Origin: an uncultured virus (IMG/VR IMGVR_UViG_2687453308_000004)
Taxonomy: Duplodnaviria; Heunggongvirae; Uroviricota; Caudoviricetes
Strand: one strand, 5' to 3'
DNA length: 26,732 bases
IMG/VR virus record: IMGVR_UViG_2687453308_000004
Both the position numbers and the translations under genes were made by a program. Below, one piece after another: positions 459 to 6,370 of this stretch. Every line of letters starts with the position of its first letter. The first letter of the stretch is position 1. Below the pieces are notes generated by a model. The model was not told the DNA's origin. It ran no database searches and was given only the letters and a program-made list of their open reading frames with translations.

Positions 459-485
459 AAAAAAGACGCAGATATACTGCGCCTT
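459..485 (-). terminator. Intrinsic terminator after Ig-like gene
   Basis: Minus strand AAGGCGCAG-TATAT-CTGCGTCTT followed by a T run. Confidence 0.75.
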
Positions 486-491
486 AAATCC

Positions 492-947
492 CTATCCGTT
501 TGTTACTGTCACTGAAATTTGTCCTGACTTATCGCTTCCATCAGTAGACATAGCAGTGATTACTGAAGTACCTTCAGCTACACCGTGAATTGCTCCTGTA
601 TTTTCATCTACAGTAACAAATTCTGGATGTTCACTTGTATATTTCAATATTTTATTCGTTGCTGTGCTTGGTGCAATGTTTGGCTCAACATTGTCATCGG
701 TATTTACCATAATTGATTTAGTTTCTGGTGTAAATGATACGCCTGAGACTAGAATTGGATTGGTTTTGAATTGAGGTACATCAACTTTACTAGATTCTTT
801 ACCATTTTCTTCCCATGCCACTTGGTAAGTACCTTTTGGATAAGTTGTATCCGCTTCTAAATTAGATAAAGTTACTGACACTTTGCCTTCACCTTGTTCA
901 GAAGCTACGACGTCGTCTCCTTTATAAACCTTTAAAGTTTTAGTCAT
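492..947 (-). CDS. Ig-like virion protein: N-terminal partial FN3-like region plus C-terminal Big_2-like domain
   Basis: N-half LKVYKG..VTLSNLEADTTY..YQVAW..ESSKVDVP; C-half VSGVSF..IAPSTATNK.LKYTS..VTVDENTG.I.GVAEGT.VITA; own RBS AAAGGAG. Confidence 0.85.
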   Translation of the reverse strand: MTKTLKVYKGDDVVASEQGEGKVSVTLSNLEADTTYPKGTYQVAWEENGKESSKVDVPQFKTNPILVSGVSFTPETKSIMVNTDDNVEPNIAPSTATNKILKYTSEHPEFVTVDENTGAIHGVAEGTSVITAMSTDGSDKSGQISVTVTNG

Positions 948-977
948 AAATTATTCTCCTTTGATTTATTTTGAAAG

Positions 978-1056
978 CCCCTATTCTGCTGAAACTGTTG
1001 CAGATTTTGAATTAACTGCTACTTCAACATTTTGGGGATTAGCTGGGTAACGAACC
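978..1056 (-). repeat. Frameshift cassette copy 1 (major tail gene 3' end; +1 extension 1046-981, PANPQNVEVAVNSKSATVSAE)
   Basis: Ungapped homology with 3139-3217; shared TTACCCAGCTAAnCCCCAAAAnGTT...TCAGCnGAATAGGGG. Confidence 0.9.
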
Positions 1057-1680
1057 TGCAGAATCCTCTGAATGATCTTCACTGTCCGTGTATCCAACGA
1101 ATACTTTTTTGAAGAATTCTGCTTCTCCTTCTTTACCTTCATGATAACCGTATACAATACCTTGTGACGTTCCATCAACATCAACTTTTCTATTCATCCA
1201 GTCACCTGTTAATTTTGTAGGTTCTGGGGCTTCTGCTTTTTCACCTCGTGTTTTAAATTCAATTGAATCTAAACTAAAAGTACCTTTAAGTAAGGCTACA
1301 TATACCGGCTGACCTGTTAAACCATCTTCCGATTCGCCAATTACTGTTACATACGGTGCTCTTGTATTCTCTCCTACCCAAGATGTACCATTTTTATCTT
1401 TAGTACGTCCAATAACTGTGTTTAAATCATCACTTGGAATATTGAAAATACTCATGTCAGACTTAACTTCATTAGTACCTTGTTTTTTCATCCATACACG
1501 TTTGTTAGATGCAAACATATCTACTAAATCTGGTGCTAAACCTGTGATATTTAGGTCAACTGTACCACCTTTTTCATCTTCCCATGTCATGCGTTTAACT
1601 ACTTTTGTTGCTTCTGGGTTAAAAACTCCAACGTATAATCTTTTAAAACCTACTTTATAAGAACCTTGTCCTTCTGCCAT
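1039..1680 (-). CDS. Major tail (tube) protein, phi13-family-like
   Basis: 213 aa, VGFKRLYVG N-terminus, position after tail completion genes, AAGGAGG RBS. Confidence 0.92.
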   Translation of the reverse strand: MAEGQGSYKVGFKRLYVGVFNPEATKVVKRMTWEDEKGGTVDLNITGLAPDLVDMFASNKRVWMKKQGTNEVKSDMSIFNIPSDDLNTVIGRTKDKNGTSWVGENTRAPYVTVIGESEDGLTGQPVYVALLKGTFSLDSIEFKTRGEKAEAPEPTKLTGDWMNRKVDVDGTSQGIVYGYHEGKEGEAEFFKKVFVGYTDSEDHSEDSAGSLPS

Positions 1681-1714
1681 TGCTTATTTCCTCCTTAAAA
1701 ATTAAAAAGCACAC

Positions 1715-2110
1715 CTATTCGATGCGCTGATTTTTATAATATATATTTTTGGGTATGCCTTGATATCGTCTCGACATCACATAACGTTTAGTTTCTTCAA
1801 AATAAGCATCTAACTGACTAGATGCTTGAATTAAATTTTGTTGATATAACAGGTATCTTATTCGTTTTGTTATATCAATTGTTTTCTGATTATTTGAAGA
1901 TTCTACATCTATTTGAATTAAGTATTCTTCACTGAGATATTTATCAGACATAAAGTCTGAAGGCAAATCATAAACAGGTGTAATAACAACAAAGGGTTTG
2001 GAAGTTTCAGCGTTTTCAGTGACTTTGTAATAGTATATTCTAGAATTTATATGTGTTTTGAGCTCTGCATCAGATAATAAAATTCCTTTTATGGTGTTTA
2101 ATATATTCAT
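1715..2110 (-). CDS. Putative tail terminator/completion protein
   Basis: 131 aa, PFVVITP..IQIDVES pattern, position directly before tail tube gene. Confidence 0.75.
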   Translation of the reverse strand: MNILNTIKGILLSDAELKTHINSRIYYYKVTENAETSKPFVVITPVYDLPSDFMSDKYLSEEYLIQIDVESSNNQKTIDITKRIRYLLYQQNLIQASSQLDAYFEETKRYVMSRRYQGIPKNIYYKNQRIE

Positions 2111-2512
2111 TTATCTGGCCAACTCCTTTTTTATAATTTCTCTATACTTACGTTCGCTAGCAGCTAATGTTTTTGCAATAACTCCAAAACCTCTTGGTGT
2201 ATATTTTTTTCCATCTCTTGTATAACCATGTTCATTCAAGTGAATAATGTTTTTGCGATTCATAGGGCCTACCCATTCAATTAAAACAGCCCTTTCTTGA
2301 CTGCCAACTTTTGTATAAGGCTTAGATTTAGTCATTTCTTCTATACTGGCACCCGTATCTTTAAAGCTCTCGAACTCTTTCTTTAAAGCCTTTATAAAAA
2401 ATTCAGATGCTTCATTTAAAGCTTTATCACTCTTAGCCTGCATTGCTTGTTTACCGTATACCGATTCTAATTTATTCAACACTTCAGGTATCCCTTTAAT
2501 TTCTACACTCAT
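2111..2512 (-). CDS. HK97 gp10-like neck/tail completion protein
   Basis: MSVEIKGIPEV start, DTGAS and IIHLNEHGY motifs, synteny. Confidence 0.75.
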   Translation of the reverse strand: MSVEIKGIPEVLNKLESVYGKQAMQAKSDKALNEASEFFIKALKKEFESFKDTGASIEEMTKSKPYTKVGSQERAVLIEWVGPMNRKNIIHLNEHGYTRDGKKYTPRGFGVIAKTLAASERKYREIIKKELAR

Positions 2513-2841
2513 TTTTCTGATAAAACCACTGTATTATAGCCAATATCTGGTGTATCAATTCTTATTTCTACAATGTTGAATAATTTATCGGAATATAATG
2601 CACTGTCAATTTTAACTAAGTGATTTGTTTGTGGTAGATATTCAGTTTTAGAAGACCTGACAATTATGGTTAATCCTGATTTTGATTCAGTCGCTTTTAA
2701 AATTTCTCTATCTTTCATAGAAGGATTATAAATTTTACAAAAGCAACTATACAATTTCATTTTTTCCTCTTCATCTGGATATGGTCCTTTGTTTATATAT
2801 TGAAAAAAATACGCGCGATCTTTAAATTCATTAAATTCCAT
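2509..2841 (-). CDS. Head closure / head-tail adaptor protein
   Basis: 110 aa, follows head-tail connector, ATGA-type overlap with next gene. Confidence 0.75.
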   Translation of the reverse strand: MEFNEFKDRAYFFQYINKGPYPDEEEKMKLYSCFCKIYNPSMKDREILKATESKSGLTIIVRSSKTEYLPQTNHLVKIDSALYSDKLFNIVEIRIDTPDIGYNTVVLSEK

Positions 2842-2852
2842 TTAAAAATCAC

Positions 2853-3131
2853 CTACCACTTTTTTAATTTCAAAATCATTTTTTGCAATCCTTTTTCATT
2901 AAACACCTTGCTTCTAGATTGGTCATTTGAGTATCCACGACTTTCATAATCTCTTGCAATGATATATTTAATCGCTGTACAAAAAAGCGGGTATTCCAAG
3001 TCATCTTTGTCATAATCTGGAACCCCACTTAATAGTAATTCAGACTTAGCCGATTGAATGAGACCTTCAATTAAATCATTTTCGAAATTATAGTCAATTC
3101 TCAACCACAATTTAATTTCTTCTAAACTCAT
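2853..3131 (-). CDS. Head-tail connector protein (HK97 gp6-like)
   Basis: MSLEEIKLWLRIDYNFENDLIEGLIQSA...YESRG pattern right after capsid. Confidence 0.88.
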   Translation of the reverse strand: MSLEEIKLWLRIDYNFENDLIEGLIQSAKSELLLSGVPDYDKDDLEYPLFCTAIKYIIARDYESRGYSNDQSRSKVFNEKGLQKMILKLKKW

Positions 3132-3138
3132 TTCATCA

Positions 3139-3217
3139 CCCCTATTCGGCTGATATTACAGCTGATTTAGCCTTAGCTGTTACATTAACCTTTTGGGGCT
3201 TAGCTGGGTAATGGACC
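3139..3217 (-). repeat. Frameshift cassette copy 2 (capsid gene 3' end; +1 extension 3207-3142, PAKPQKVNVTAKAKSAVISAE)
   Basis: Ungapped homology with 978-1056; fills the capsid-connector gap. Confidence 0.9.
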
Positions 3218-4363
3218 TGTATTTTCTTTTGCTTTTGCAATTCTGAATGCACTGTCTAATGTACGTTGCTGATCATACCATGCTGTTAATACAAACAAAT
3301 ATTCGCCTTTTTTAACATCTTTATCAGTGTCATAAGTTGTTCCATCATAGTTAATTCCAAAATAATTGAAATCTCCCACAATAGGTTTAACTGCTGCATC
3401 TGTAAATACTACTGGTTTGCCAAATACTTTTTCTGCTGGTGTGTCAAAGAAATTTGTTGTTCCATTTGAAAGAACACTAATAATTTTGACATAATCTGCA
3501 TATCGCATATAAATTGTTGCGTTATCACGATAATCTTCATGTAAATCTGCTAAAGCGTTAATAATAGCATCATACATGTCTGCTCCCTCAACTTCTTTAA
3601 CAGATCCATTATAAAATGACATGTGTTCTAATCCAGATTTAGGACTTACTGCTAAGGCATCTTTACGCTCTTTAGCTGCTAATCCTGATTGTAGTGCGTT
3701 TTCAACCCAGTTTACTAAATCTACATCTGATCCATGAATTACAGTATCTGAAATTGCAGCAAATACTTTGAATTTATTAGTAGTGAACTTGACTGTATCA
3801 CCTTTTGCTTTTAATTCTTTTGCTGTTTCTACGTCTGTAATGAAATCATCATCGTCTAAAGTGTATGAAACTCTTGGAATCTCTAAACCTTTAATGTTAG
3901 TTAGACGAGCTTTTTCACGTAATTGGTTTTTAGCAAATGGTTCTGAAACAATTTCTTTAGAAAGTGTTTTTGGTAAGAGCTTATCTCCACCTGAATCATT
4001 TCCTGTTGGTAAAGCGTGTAATAAACGTTGTGCCTCCATTGAAGGTTTTTCAAATTCATTTGGTAAAATCGCGTGACGATAAAACTCTGCCTTAGCTTTA
4101 ACCATCTTCTCATTATCACTTAAAGATTGATAAGCTTCTCCTTTATCTTTAACTTTCGCTTTTTCTTTCTCTTCAATGTCTTGCACTTGTCTTTCAACAA
4201 TGTTAAATCTTTGTTGTAAACCTGCTTTTTCTGTTTCTAGTTGTTTGATGTCTTCCATATCAATATTTGGATCTGTTGCTTTCTGACTCAATTCATCATT
4301 TTTATTTTTTAATTGTTGTCCAATCATACCTAAGGATTGTTTTAATTCATATAATGTCGGCAT
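3200..4363 (-). CDS. Major capsid protein, HK97 fold with N-terminal coiled-coil scaffold domain
   Basis: Start reassigned to MPTLYELK at 4363 (AGGAGG 7 nt upstream), 387 aa; GGDKLLPKTLS, VFGKPVVFTD, IVGDF motifs. Confidence 0.95.
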   Translation of the reverse strand: MPTLYELKQSLGMIGQQLKNKNDELSQKATDPNIDMEDIKQLETEKAGLQQRFNIVERQVQDIEEKEKAKVKDKGEAYQSLSDNEKMVKAKAEFYRHAILPNEFEKPSMEAQRLLHALPTGNDSGGDKLLPKTLSKEIVSEPFAKNQLREKARLTNIKGLEIPRVSYTLDDDDFITDVETAKELKAKGDTVKFTTNKFKVFAAISDTVIHGSDVDLVNWVENALQSGLAAKERKDALAVSPKSGLEHMSFYNGSVKEVEGADMYDAIINALADLHEDYRDNATIYMRYADYVKIISVLSNGTTNFFDTPAEKVFGKPVVFTDAAVKPIVGDFNYFGINYDGTTYDTDKDVKKGEYLFVLTAWYDQQRTLDSAFRIAKAKENTGPLPS

Positions 4364-4374
4364 TTCATTTCCTC

Positions 4375-5148
4375 CTAATAATTCATTGTCATTTTTAAAA
4401 TTTCGCATTCGCGTTTAATTTTTTCTCTTTTTTCTTTTTCTTCTAGTGACATACTTTCTTTAGGTGTTTCAACCAATTCAGATGTATCTACATCATCAAT
4501 TTTAGTGATTTTGTCTACATCTTTCTTTAAATCTTCTGGGACGTTCTCGAAACGCTTATATTGCTCTTTAGAGATACTAGCAGCTATTTCATTAGCTCCT
4601 AAAATTTCATCTATCAAGCCGAAAGACAAGGCTTCTTCTGCAGTAAGCCAAGTTTCTGCATCTAACATCTGTTTTAAGTGTTCTTGATCTAAATCTTTTG
4701 CTTTATCTAAATAAGCTGAATTACTAACAGCATCTGTTTTTTCAAGTAAATCCGCTGTCTTTCTTAATTCTTCTGCATTACCTACAGTCATAACCCATGA
4801 ATTATGAATCATTAAAAAACTGTTTTTGTGCATAAAAATAGTGTCACCACTCATAGCGATAACACTAGCAATTGATGCCGCTAAGGCATCGACATAGATA
4901 TTAATTTTTGCAGGATGCATTTTTAGCATATTGTATATTGCATGCCCTTCAAATACACTGCCTCCAGATGAATTTATATGAACATCTATTTCACTGATGT
5001 CTCCTAGTTCATCTAGTTTATTTTTGAAATCTGTAGCAGTTACATCACTTTCAAACCATTTATCACTTACAATATCACCATAAATAAATATTTCACCTTT
5101 ACTTTTTGATTTTCTTTTCATTTGAAAATACTTAGCTTTCATTGACAT
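4375..5148 (-). CDS. Prohead maturation protease, ClpP-like
   Basis: HINSSGGSVFEG, LAASIAS, LMIHN, ETWLTAEEA motifs; likely start MSMKAKY after AGGTGGTGA. Confidence 0.93.
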   Translation of the reverse strand: MSMKAKYFQMKRKSKSKGEIFIYGDIVSDKWFESDVTATDFKNKLDELGDISEIDVHINSSGGSVFEGHAIYNMLKMHPAKINIYVDALAASIASVIAMSGDTIFMHKNSFLMIHNSWVMTVGNAEELRKTADLLEKTDAVSNSAYLDKAKDLDQEHLKQMLDAETWLTAEEALSFGLIDEILGANEIAASISKEQYKRFENVPEDLKKDVDKITKIDDVDTSELVETPKESMSLEEKEKREKIKRECEILKMTMNY

Positions 5149-6370
5149 TTTTATCACCACCTTTCAAAGATTTTCTTAATTCAAGTGGCGTGTCAATTGG
5201 GTATAAATCACCGCTTATTAGCGGCTTATCTCCACCTTCAACTGGTGGTAAATCTTCCCACTCTCTAATGTCATTTATAGTGTAGTAACCACTACGAACT
5301 GCTTTAAAGTACACTTCTGCTTGTGTTGCACTATCAGCCCTTAAATAAGATTTAACGTTAAATTTAAAATACCTATTTTTTTCTCTGTCTGTTTTAGTAA
5401 GTAGTTTCCGATTAAATTCTTCTTCATACTGTTTGACGATTGGCAATAAGGTATGCTGCAAGTAAAATCTGTTTAACTCTTCATTTTTCGCGAAATTTGT
5501 ATTTGATCTTGCATTTAAGAATACTGAGGGCAATTGAAAAACGTTAGCTACTCTTTCTCTTGTTAAATTCTCGCTTGCCACTATATCTTCAGAGACATAT
5601 TTTTTAGGTAACGGTTCGATTTCAACACCAGGCTCTTGGAATAATATTCCACCGTTTTCTTCATAGTACTGTTTGAAATCTTCTAACACTTGCTGCCTTT
5701 TTTCTTTACCTACATTGGAACCATATTTAAGCATGAAAGAATCAGGTTTTTGCATTTCTGTAAGATTAAAGGTTCTTACTGCATTATCAAAATCAGTTGT
5801 ATTCTTCAACACATCAATCGGACTAATGCCTTGCACCATATTAGATGCCACGATGTGTTTAAAATGCAACATGTCCATATTATGAACAATCAATTTATTT
5901 CCAGTTGCAGCATGAATGGAATAATAAAGTTCACGTGATTGGTTTTCAATTAACATTTCAACAACATCTGGATTTAATAAGAAAAGCTTTGATGGTTGAT
6001 GATAGATGTCTCGTTCAATTAGCACATATGCATTACCTTTTTCATTTCTGATTGTTTCAATTTGATTAATAAAATCAAAACTGCTCAGAGAATTATTCGG
6101 TGACACTGTAAGTAAATCAGATACTTCTGTATTAACTACTTTATAATCTTCATACATTTTCAAGGGCAAACTAGCCATCGAATTAGATAACTTTGTAATA
6201 GCTGAAAATATCGTTTCATTAGTTTCAAGCGTATTATTGATTACACCCCAAAAAGATTTATTTTTCCATGGGCTAAAGTCATAAAGCTTAGAAGCTGACT
6301 GATCAATCCAATTGTCTATCAATTTTTTCTTTATGCGTGTGACAATATTCTCTTTTGCGATAACATTCAC
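5132..6370 (-). CDS. Portal protein, HK97 family (start codon uncertain)
   Basis: GNAYVLIER, GISPI, TINDIREWEDLPPVEGGD motifs; lies between TerL and protease. Confidence 0.95.
   Translation of the reverse strand: MNVIAKENIVTRIKKKLIDNWIDQSASKLYDFSPWKNKSFWGVINNTLETNETIFSAITKLSNSMASLPLKMYEDYKVVNTEVSDLLTVSPNNSLSSFDFINQIETIRNEKGNAYVLIERDIYHQPSKLFLLNPDVVEMLIENQSRELYYSIHAATGNKLIVHNMDMLHFKHIVASNMVQGISPIDVLKNTTDFDNAVRTFNLTEMQKPDSFMLKYGSNVGKEKRQQVLEDFKQYYEENGGILFQEPGVEIEPLPKKYVSEDIVASENLTRERVANVFQLPSVFLNARSNTNFAKNEELNRFYLQHTLLPIVKQYEEEFNRKLLTKTDREKNRYFKFNVKSYLRADSATQAEVYFKAVRSGYYTINDIREWEDLPPVEGGDKPLISGDLYPIDTPLELRKSLKGGDKNVNES

Follow-up and report, generated by a model that had tools for sequence, protein, structure and literature searches.

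The stretch of DNA analysed here, termed the window, comprises 26,732 nt of an uncultured virus of the Caudoviricetes (IMG/VR record IMGVR_UViG_2687453308_000004) and harbors, on its minus strand, the late operon with the structural genes of a phi12/phiSLT-like Triavirus prophage from Staphylococcus aureus. Within this operon, the gene of the major capsid protein (CP; 3200..4408, minus strand) encodes 402 aa of the HK97 type (Pfam Phage_capsid, PF05065, E 5e-16), and the gene for the major tail (tube) protein (MTP; 1039..1680, minus strand) encodes 213 aa (Pfam Phage_TTP_1, PF04630, E 9e-14). Both genes are followed by a cassette of 70 nt in which a rare proline codon close to the stop codon leads into an open +1 reading frame and a predicted RNA structure. 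The next gene after the tail cassette (492..947, minus strand) is gp38-like and is called gp38 below. According to Pfam, an AlphaFold (AF2) model and fold searches, its product of 151 aa would consist of an FN3-like sandwich without strands A and B (residues 1 to about 64), which we propose as a catcher, and of a Big_2 immunoglobulin-like (Ig-like) domain (residues ~65-151). Here, we describe a comparative analysis of the two cassettes and of the docking function that their encoded peptides may serve.

The locus is widespread among staphylococcal phages. The tail-tube region of 741 nt has matches in 104 phage records, every one from Staphylococcus; 103 of these reach at least 80% query coverage and 89 at least 99% identity, the latter group including phi12, phage 47, phi2958PVL and the phiSa2wa phages. 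The DNA of the tail-tube gene itself is 100% identical in phi12, phage 47, phi2958PVL and others, and the capsid region has matches in 106 phage records. Few S. aureus prophages have been studied as well or are as common in the clinic as phi12, phiSLT, phage 47 and the phiSa2 phages that carry PVL, and the two genes concerned are their most abundant structural genes.

Proposed slip sites and +1-frame peptides

A sequence-only reading of the window had proposed that the two genes end in the same +1 frameshift cassette, and its description of the DNA stands. The capsid gene closes with GGT CCA TTA CCC AGC TAA (3217-3200) and the tail-tube gene with GGT TCG TTA CCC AGC TAA (1056-1039), which places the slip sites CCC AGC TAA at 3200..3208 and 1039..1047 of the minus strand. 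Read in the +1 frame after CCC, the capsid cassette gives PAKPQKVNVTAKAKSAVISAE and the tail-tube cassette PANPQNVEVAVNSKSATVSAE, each followed by TAG GGG (3207-3139 and 1046-978, respectively). The two peptides are equal in length and can be aligned without gaps, with 12 of 21 residues identical, and the synonymous differences TCT/TCA, GCA/GCT and GCA/GCC that had been pointed out between the cassettes are indeed present. The putative extensions, each consisting of the proline codon CCA that overlaps the slip codon, 20 further codons and TAG, occupy 3142..3207 and 981..1046 of the minus strand; both carry a coding signature and are matched by a profile of the peptide, referred to as the tag (E 7e-12 for the capsid copy).

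The slip codon is the sole CCC of the capsid gene and likewise the sole CCC of the tail-tube gene. Together with CCG, CCC is the rarest proline codon of the operon, accounting for 9 of 85 proline codons in 11 structural open reading frames (ORFs) with 2587 codons. The claim that these stretches are annotated as intergenic held for the most part: slippage is absent from all four Triavirus GenBank records consulted, but two of them label the capsid +1 ORF as a separate hypothetical protein. In annotation, the capsid and tail genes should be extended to take in the “intergenic” stretches as well as the “hypothetical proteins” of 36 aa that are recorded there occasionally.

Conservation of the cassette among relatives

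Relatives were gathered by homology of the tail-tube protein, a procedure that is unbiased regarding the cassette. It yielded five prophages with 61-70% identity, from S. gallinarum, S. pseudoxylosus, S. nepalensis, Staphylococcus sp. S9 and a Pseudogracilibacillus metagenome-assembled genome (MAG), as well as phage DS12 of S. pseudintermedius with 73% identity, giving a set of seven genomes including the window. A locus of a Planctomycetales MAG from the same search matched over 21 residues only and was discarded as spurious. The number of cassettes with the pattern CCC-N7-CCC-N51-TAGGGG is exactly two in every one of the seven genomes; they measure 70 nt each and show no indels, one being located 3' of the capsid gene and one 3' of the tail-tube gene at a distance of about 2.1 kb. 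Stops or indels in the +1 frame of relatives, which the sequence-only reading had named among the observations that would speak against it, are absent, the frame being open in every relative examined (7 genomes, 14 cassettes).

The +1 frame, open from the slip site onwards, shows a conservation of the coding type: the column entropy over the 14 cassettes amounts to 0.52, 0.48 and 1.11 for its first, second and third codon positions. The 0-frame C-termini of the tail proteins vary freely, and the +1 peptide stays near P-x-x-P-Q-N-V-E-V-x-A-N-S-K-S-A-x-I-S-A-E. In four of the genomes (loci L001, L005, L006 and L007, with capsid genes at about 1085-2455), the capsid protein has 374 aa and belongs to Pfam Phage_capsid, and tblastn detected no link between these proteins and the capsid protein of the window; the cassette is present regardless. 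Because this 374-aa capsid lineage carries it too, the cassette behaves as a module shared by diverged head genes.

A census of the cassette pattern, which fixes 28 bases and is therefore partly circular, returned 14 sites in a one-genome-per-species collection, with pairs in six prophages and single sites in S. pettenkoferi and S. argensis, and at least 162 sites in IMG/VR, so that both collections together add at least 176 further matches. The census matches listed comprise 60 distinct cassettes and 52 distinct peptides with no internal stop. In these 60 cassettes, the 0-frame stop follows directly after CCC in 46, as CCC_TAA or CCC_TAG, and one codon later in 14, the intervening codon being AGC, AGT, AAG, TCA or TCG. 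The slip codon is overlapped in the +1 frame by CCA or CCT throughout. A +1-frame stop is located two codons upstream of the slip in 4 of 89 distinct contexts, which confines the frame change to the codons ACA-CCC. We conclude that the cassette pair is real and non-random, and that, as far as can be judged from sequence comparison, both genes carry a +1 programmed-frameshift cassette of the type known from PSA and SPP1. The extension is very probably made and selected as a peptide.

For 17 distinct pairs of tags from 35 genomes or contigs, the similarity is 0.67 within and 0.72 between genomes (permutation p 0.996). Recent gene conversion between capsid and tail tags is ruled out by this result, and the missing excess of within-genome likeness points to the two tags as old, separate lineages.

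A predicted RNA structure overlapping the extension

In addition to the slip codon, a second CCC located 10 nt past the first and the terminal GGGG are invariant. Together they form a predicted 4-bp clamp around a 17-bp hairpin. In the capsid cassette, this putative stimulatory RNA covers 3139..3198 of the minus strand, with the clamp CCCC(3198-3195):GGGG(3142-3139) and the hairpin 3190-3148 inside; its counterpart after the tail-tube gene covers 978..1037, with the clamp CCCC(1037-1034):GGGG(981-978) and the hairpin 1029-987. The structure begins 7 nt past the slip codon; given the geometry of the ribosome, one with CCC in its peptidyl (P) site would encounter it at this distance. A candidate stimulatory RNA is thus present at a suitable distance. 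The invariance of the CCCC:GGGG clamp explains two peculiarities of the cassettes, namely their shared TAG GGG end and a second proline codon that is fixed as the rare CCC.

Across the 14 cassettes, 89.1% of the cells are paired compared to 80.6% in column shuffles, a value reached in none of 500 shuffles, although this figure is not a probability as the sequences are related. Sliding the partners by 1-3 columns lowers the paired cells to 33-48%. Compensatory changes occur at 10 of 21 pairs and are unevenly distributed: all seven pairs between third codon positions covary, compared to three of ten pairs involving first or second positions (hypergeometric test by hand, p = 0.006). This concentration in wobble-wobble pairs indicates that peptide and stem are both under selection. 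The same 51 nt would encode a beta-hairpin of the peptide and, at the RNA level, the hairpin by which the slip is provoked, wobble bases being paired to wobble bases. Since the single-sequence fold z-scores of the two window cassettes are unremarkable (-1.7 and -1.2), the RNA structure is supported by comparison and not by stability. A search of Rfam with the positions 900-3300 gave no family at E <= 1.

gp38 and the proposed split FN3 domain

The gp38 gene is conserved in all seven genomes. Its product scores 37.3 bits against Big_2 (PF02368, residues 67-140, E 3e-9; Pfam cut-off 22.8), and its AF2 model reaches a predicted local distance difference test score (pLDDT) of 96.1. The modelled C-terminal domain matches 7quz (Z 14.6), T5 pb6 (5NGJ, Z 12.7), the phi29 capsid protein (6QVK, Z 10.3) and the C-terminal domain of lambda gpV (2L04, Z 9.1); by this model, it is a classical phage Ig-like decoration domain. 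In lambda gpV, T5 pb6 and the phi29 capsid protein, the Ig-like domain is part of the structural protein, whereas here it would come in trans. As with those domains, gp38 is expected on the surface of tube and head.

When the N-terminal domain was modelled alone (pLDDT 93.5), the list of fold matches consisted mostly of FN3 domains. The single-domain FN3 entries begin to match only at residue 28-36 (7jgu 31-91, 3pe9 31-90, 3pdg 30-90, 8oty 36-102 and 3teu 28-94), from which it follows that the gp38 domain is devoid of FN3 strands A and B. The top match is residues 227-286 of BppA from Lactococcus phage Tuc2009 (Z 7.3, root-mean-square deviation 2.3 A over 60 aligned residues, 30% identity), and BLASTP aligns both proteins with 36% identity over 44 aa (E 0.007). 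In the Tuc2009 structure (PDB 5E7T), as described in the accessible part of its report, residues 296-321 of BppU form a C-terminal hairpin that completes a sheet of BppA domain 2, and the composite resembles an FN3 domain of titin (PMC4742702). The C-terminus of BppU, KPPTNLIVSDVTSTSAKISWENGG, agrees by eye with the tag pattern. Judged by its sequence pattern, the extension looks like FN3 strands A and B. The sequence-only reading had suggested that a fraction of the head and tail subunits carry a short tag peptide and no complete domain. This view holds and can be sharpened: in an FN3 domain that is split between two proteins, the tag would represent the opening pair of strands, and the rest would reside on gp38.

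Profile searches place tag and catcher in a larger context. An exhaustive search with the catcher profile yielded 257 proteins at E <= 0.001; among the short ones, the catcher mostly starts at residue 1. A tag-like peptide, encoded in frame 0, additionally forms the end of at least 16 catcher proteins. In long, unsplit relatives, the tag-like stretch is located immediately ahead of the catcher-like part; a word-based search had suggested that no longer, fused forms of the catcher exist, and this was overturned by the exhaustive search. Local profile scans detected one catcher and two tags in all seven tag-bearing genomes and neither element in the three tag-less phages LP-101, phi6229 and PSA (first 12 kb).

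Two further observations concern the catcher fold. Some proteins with both catcher and tag are only 86-93 aa long, with nothing between the two elements, and proteins that start with a catcher and end with a tag could plug head to tail into chains. Furthermore, residues 4-73 of chain Sa in 9d93, the N-terminal domain of a 477-aa tail-tip protein of mycobacteriophage Bxb1, superpose on the gp38 catcher (Z 6.7); this may be another solved case of a partial FN3 domain completed in trans.

Published phi12 protein data

The computed masses of the window proteins equal those of phi12. Residues 129-402 of the window CP have a computed mass of 30,374.8 Da, which is the mass given for phi12 CP (PMC8569155). 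According to the accessible part of this report, phi12 CP runs in two gel bands of 29.5 and 32.6 kDa, both without the delta domain and given no explanation there, and gp38 is among the major bands of the phi12 particles with 96% coverage, is listed in its Table 1 and is called a “minor tail protein”. For the extended forms, masses of 32,310 Da (CP) and 25,205 Da (MTP) are predicted. The computed gain is +1935 Da for CP and +1910 Da for MTP in the case of a +1 slip, and +1639 and +1628 Da in the case of a hop from the first CCC to the second. The phi12 CP doublet fits a frameshift.

Proposed mechanism

In the mechanism we propose, the rare CCC would occupy the P site of the ribosome at the moment when the G:C clamp (CCCC:GGGG) around the 17-bp hairpin, 7 nt further on, causes a pause. 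By analogy with the description of SPP1, the tRNA-Pro would then re-pair one base forward, onto CCA in the window and onto CCU in relatives with CCC_UAA, and the ribosome would read 20 further codons up to the TAG inside the 3' arm of the clamp. As a result, a fraction of the capsid and tail-tube subunits would end in a 20-residue peptide. In terms of the FN3 fold, this peptide would provide the beta-strands A and B, and gp38 would start with the strands that are left, C to G, followed by the Big_2 Ig-like domain. Through the tag, the sandwich of gp38 would be completed in trans, in the manner in which BppA domain 2 is completed by the BppU hairpin in the crystal structure from Tuc2009. Head and tail would thereby hold the Ig-like domain by a non-covalent clip, in a copy number set by the slip frequency.

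By analogy with this crystal structure, gp38 is probably the partner of the tag. The account as a whole, a +1 frameshift that delivers a split-FN3 docking tag for gp38 to both capsid and tail, appears to us reasonably likely. A wider version goes further: one free Ig-like protein would decorate both head and tail and be fused to neither, the slip rate would set the number of tags with one gp38 per tag, slip site, RNA clamp and tag would move as a unit among diverged capsid and tail genes of Staphylococcaceae phages, and the tag would belong to a wider, undescribed family of tags and catchers, many members of which have both ends and could form chains. This version we regard as having a little better than an even prospect.

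Points against the proposal and alternative explanations

Several observations weigh against the proposed docking by frameshift. On the protein side, the major peaks in electrospray ionization time-of-flight (ESI-TOF) spectra of phi12 correspond to the 0-frame products CP 129-402 and MTP 2-213, the minor peaks being left without assignment there, and the accessible part of the report contains no MTP band of 25.2 kDa (PMC8569155). The bands of the CP doublet are 3.1 kDa apart on the gel, compared to the predicted 1.94 kDa, and the doublet could stem from a second cleavage site of the delta domain. At the slip site of the window, the codon in the aminoacyl (A) site is the sense codon AGC and not a stop codon. 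Concerning the split domain, the FN3 matches of the catcher have modest Z scores of 4.5-7.3, a range that can reflect a common arrangement. The profile of the tag has no match to Tuc2009 BppU at E <= 10, Pfam assigns no family to the 21-aa tags at E <= 10, and the catcher gives weak and partial Ig-like matches in Pfam (Big_3_5, positions 30-79 of 88, E 0.003; TcfC E-set, E 0.019). Furthermore, the partnership with gp38 is argued from homology and fold logic, and the tags of one genome are no more alike than those of different genomes, which gives no hint that they co-evolved with one and the same partner.

The last point would suit the most viable of the alternatives, which we nevertheless consider unlikely. 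It accepts tag and frameshift as real and assigns the tag another partner or role, as a strand for a neighbouring capsid or tube subunit, as an assembly or protease signal or in direct binding to a component of the host surface, with gp38 being attached in some other way. The designation of phi12 gp38 as a “minor tail protein”, the only description of it in the accessible part of the phi12 report (PMC8569155), agrees with such a view. It does not account, however, for the co-occurrence of tag and catcher in seven of seven genomes as compared to none of the three tag-less ones, and the strands absent from the catcher are exactly those that the tag resembles. Moreover, the closest solved relative, BppU-BppA, offers a crystal precedent, and many relatives carry catcher and tag on one protein.

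A second alternative, quite improbable in our view, retains the extension and changes the way in which it is reached. In a short hop, the peptidyl-tRNA-Pro would leave CCC and land on the second CCC 10 nt downstream, entering the same frame with a peptide that is shorter by the first three extension residues. The second CCC is found at exactly this distance in all 14 cassettes as well as in PSA cps, PSA tsh, SPP1 17.1* and the phi6229 capsid site, and the two codons between the CCCs are the most variable ones of the peptide. The position of the second CCC is, however, already accounted for by its role as 5' arm of the invariant clamp, and the codon that overlaps the slip codon in the +1 frame always encodes proline (CCA or CCT). 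The event in SPP1 is described as a shift of +1 by which CCC is left for the CCU that overlaps it, in the accessible part of the source (PMC6316719).

The cassette might also be an RNA element only, serving mRNA stability, processing or regulation, with the open +1 frame left over from an ancestral FN3 extension and no longer translated. In its favour, support for the RNA structure is good, and the masses assigned for phi12, as far as its report is accessible, are solely those of 0-frame products (PMC8569155). What makes this explanation very improbable is the pattern of conservation: covariation is concentrated in wobble-wobble pairs with first and second codon positions nearly fixed, the 52 distinct peptides listed are free of stops, and both the slip codon and the place of the stop are conserved. 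Other proteins end in the same peptide, encoded in frame 0, and Rfam contains no matching family. The remotest alternative holds that read-through opens the clamp and frees TAGGGG as ribosome-binding site of the next gene, the peptide being a by-product; it can draw on TAGGGGTGA after the capsid gene, 7 nt ahead of the ATG with which the head-tail connector gene starts, but the gene that follows the tail-tube gene is served by a separate AAGGAG some 25 nt beyond and TAGGGG is kept there all the same, and both the conservation at the peptide level and the fit of tag and catcher would be left unexplained.

The proposed docking of gp38 by a frameshifted tag would account at once for the phi12 CP doublet, the abundance of gp38 in the particles, the shared TAG GGG ending and the invariant rare second CCC. 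Literature searches, which covered openly accessible papers, gave no description of recoding in phi12, phiIPLA35 or other Triavirus or S. aureus siphophages, and a search on strand complementation together with an FN3 decoration protein found no description either. New here are the nature of the extension, which resembles FN3 strands A-B, and its putative delivery to both capsid and tail tube by frameshifting. If true, a natural tag of 20 residues and a catcher of 64 residues on the phage surface would constitute a ready display system.

Neighbouring features

Between the capsid and tail-tube genes, a head-tail connector was assigned by Pfam at 2853-3131, and a tail chaperone follows gp38 at 84-434. 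A terminator-like hairpin with a T-run (463..485, minus strand) is located 3' of gp38 at the end of the block from capsid to gp38 and is kept after the gp38 homologues of the six relatives; fewer transcripts may pass through it into the genes of the chaperone and the tape measure. A third cassette was sought after the gp38 homologues, where only this terminator hairpin was found. A second terminator-like hairpin with a T-run lies at 1708-1728 of the minus strand, just upstream of the tail-tube gene. In phage P240 (NC_055042.1), the tail-tube gene is annotated as two coding sequences of 396 and 159 nt, and the record has 742 nt over the stretch that measures 741 nt in the window; this is likely an indel or sequencing error and not biology. 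Finally, the start codon of gp38 is in the frame of the tail tag, 36 nt on and with three stops intervening (947-983, minus strand). As the gp38 start is out of frame in S. gallinarum, the shared frame is probably accidental.

Comparison with known systems

Programmed +1 frameshifts were reportedly described by Zimmer et al. in 2003 at cps and tsh of Listeria phage PSA, and “ribosomal slippage” is annotated for both genes in GenBank (NC_003291). The two PSA sites have the form ACA CCC-N7-CCCC with GGGG downstream, that of tsh being CCC_TGA. As in the window, capsid and tail-tube genes of one phage are both extended at their 3' ends, and a CCCC...GGGG stem is predicted. The tail-tube proteins are homologous as well, since tblastn with the window protein retrieved 14 Listeria phage records, the best being LP-101 with 37% identity. 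In contrast to the window, the extensions of PSA, about 47 aa for cps and an acidic one of 24 aa for tsh, are unrelated both to each other and to the tag, whereas capsid and tail of the window would receive the same FN3 half-domain. Judged by eye, the cps extension (5148-5290) has a SAP/HeH-type helix-extended-helix look. The local profile scan found no gp38-like catcher in the first 12 kb of PSA, and the tag profile has no match in PSA, LP-101 or phi6229.

In Bacillus phage SPP1, the reading frame shifts by +1 within CCCUAA, where the rare CCC is left for the CCU that overlaps it. The tail-tube protein gp17.1 thereby gains 87 residues that include an FN3 motif, yielding 17.1*, and the two forms occur at 3:1, according to the accessible parts of the reports (PMC6316719; PMC8718954). 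The DNA of the 17.1* site shows CCC-N7-CCCC, and its minimum-energy fold is a GCCCC:GGGGC clamp with an inner hairpin, slip codon and layout being the same as in the window and the predicted clamp similar. The SPP1 extension starts with PNAPQNLTYTATTDSVTVKW, opening with the P..PQN motif and the A-B strand pattern, and is then matched by the catcher profile at extension residues 26-72. Because a tag-like start precedes this match, the SPP1 extension appears as the unsplit counterpart of tag and catcher. Whereas SPP1 attaches a whole FN3 domain covalently and to the tail tube only, the stop in the window would cut the domain after strand B, the rest would be encoded in a separate, Big_2-fused protein, and the capsid would be tagged too.

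The capsid gene of Mammaliicoccus phage phi6229 (5192-5273) ends in ATG CCC TAA followed by a CCCCC:GGGGG hairpin, and its +1 extension would be a different, acidic peptide of 25 aa which likewise ends in TAG GGG. This phage has no cassette after its tail-tube gene and no gp38-like catcher in the locus. The layout CCC-N7-CCC(C) with a predicted CCCC...GGGG stem is thus common to PSA cps, PSA tsh, SPP1 17.1* and the phi6229 capsid site, and the precedent of PSA and SPP1 that had been invoked for the window is borne out by a layout shared with both proven systems.

The closest parallel on the protein side is found in Tuc2009, where a C-terminal hairpin of 25 residues from another protein completes an FN3-like sandwich, as proposed here for tag and gp38. 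Unlike the tags of the window, the BppU hairpin is encoded in frame 0 without a frameshift, is located in the baseplate and has no role in capsid or tail tube, and the catcher is C-terminal in BppA but N-terminal in gp38. The account proposed here would join the FN3 extension of SPP1, the double frameshift of PSA and the BppU-BppA hairpin of Tuc2009 in a single arrangement, namely a split domain delivered by recoding.

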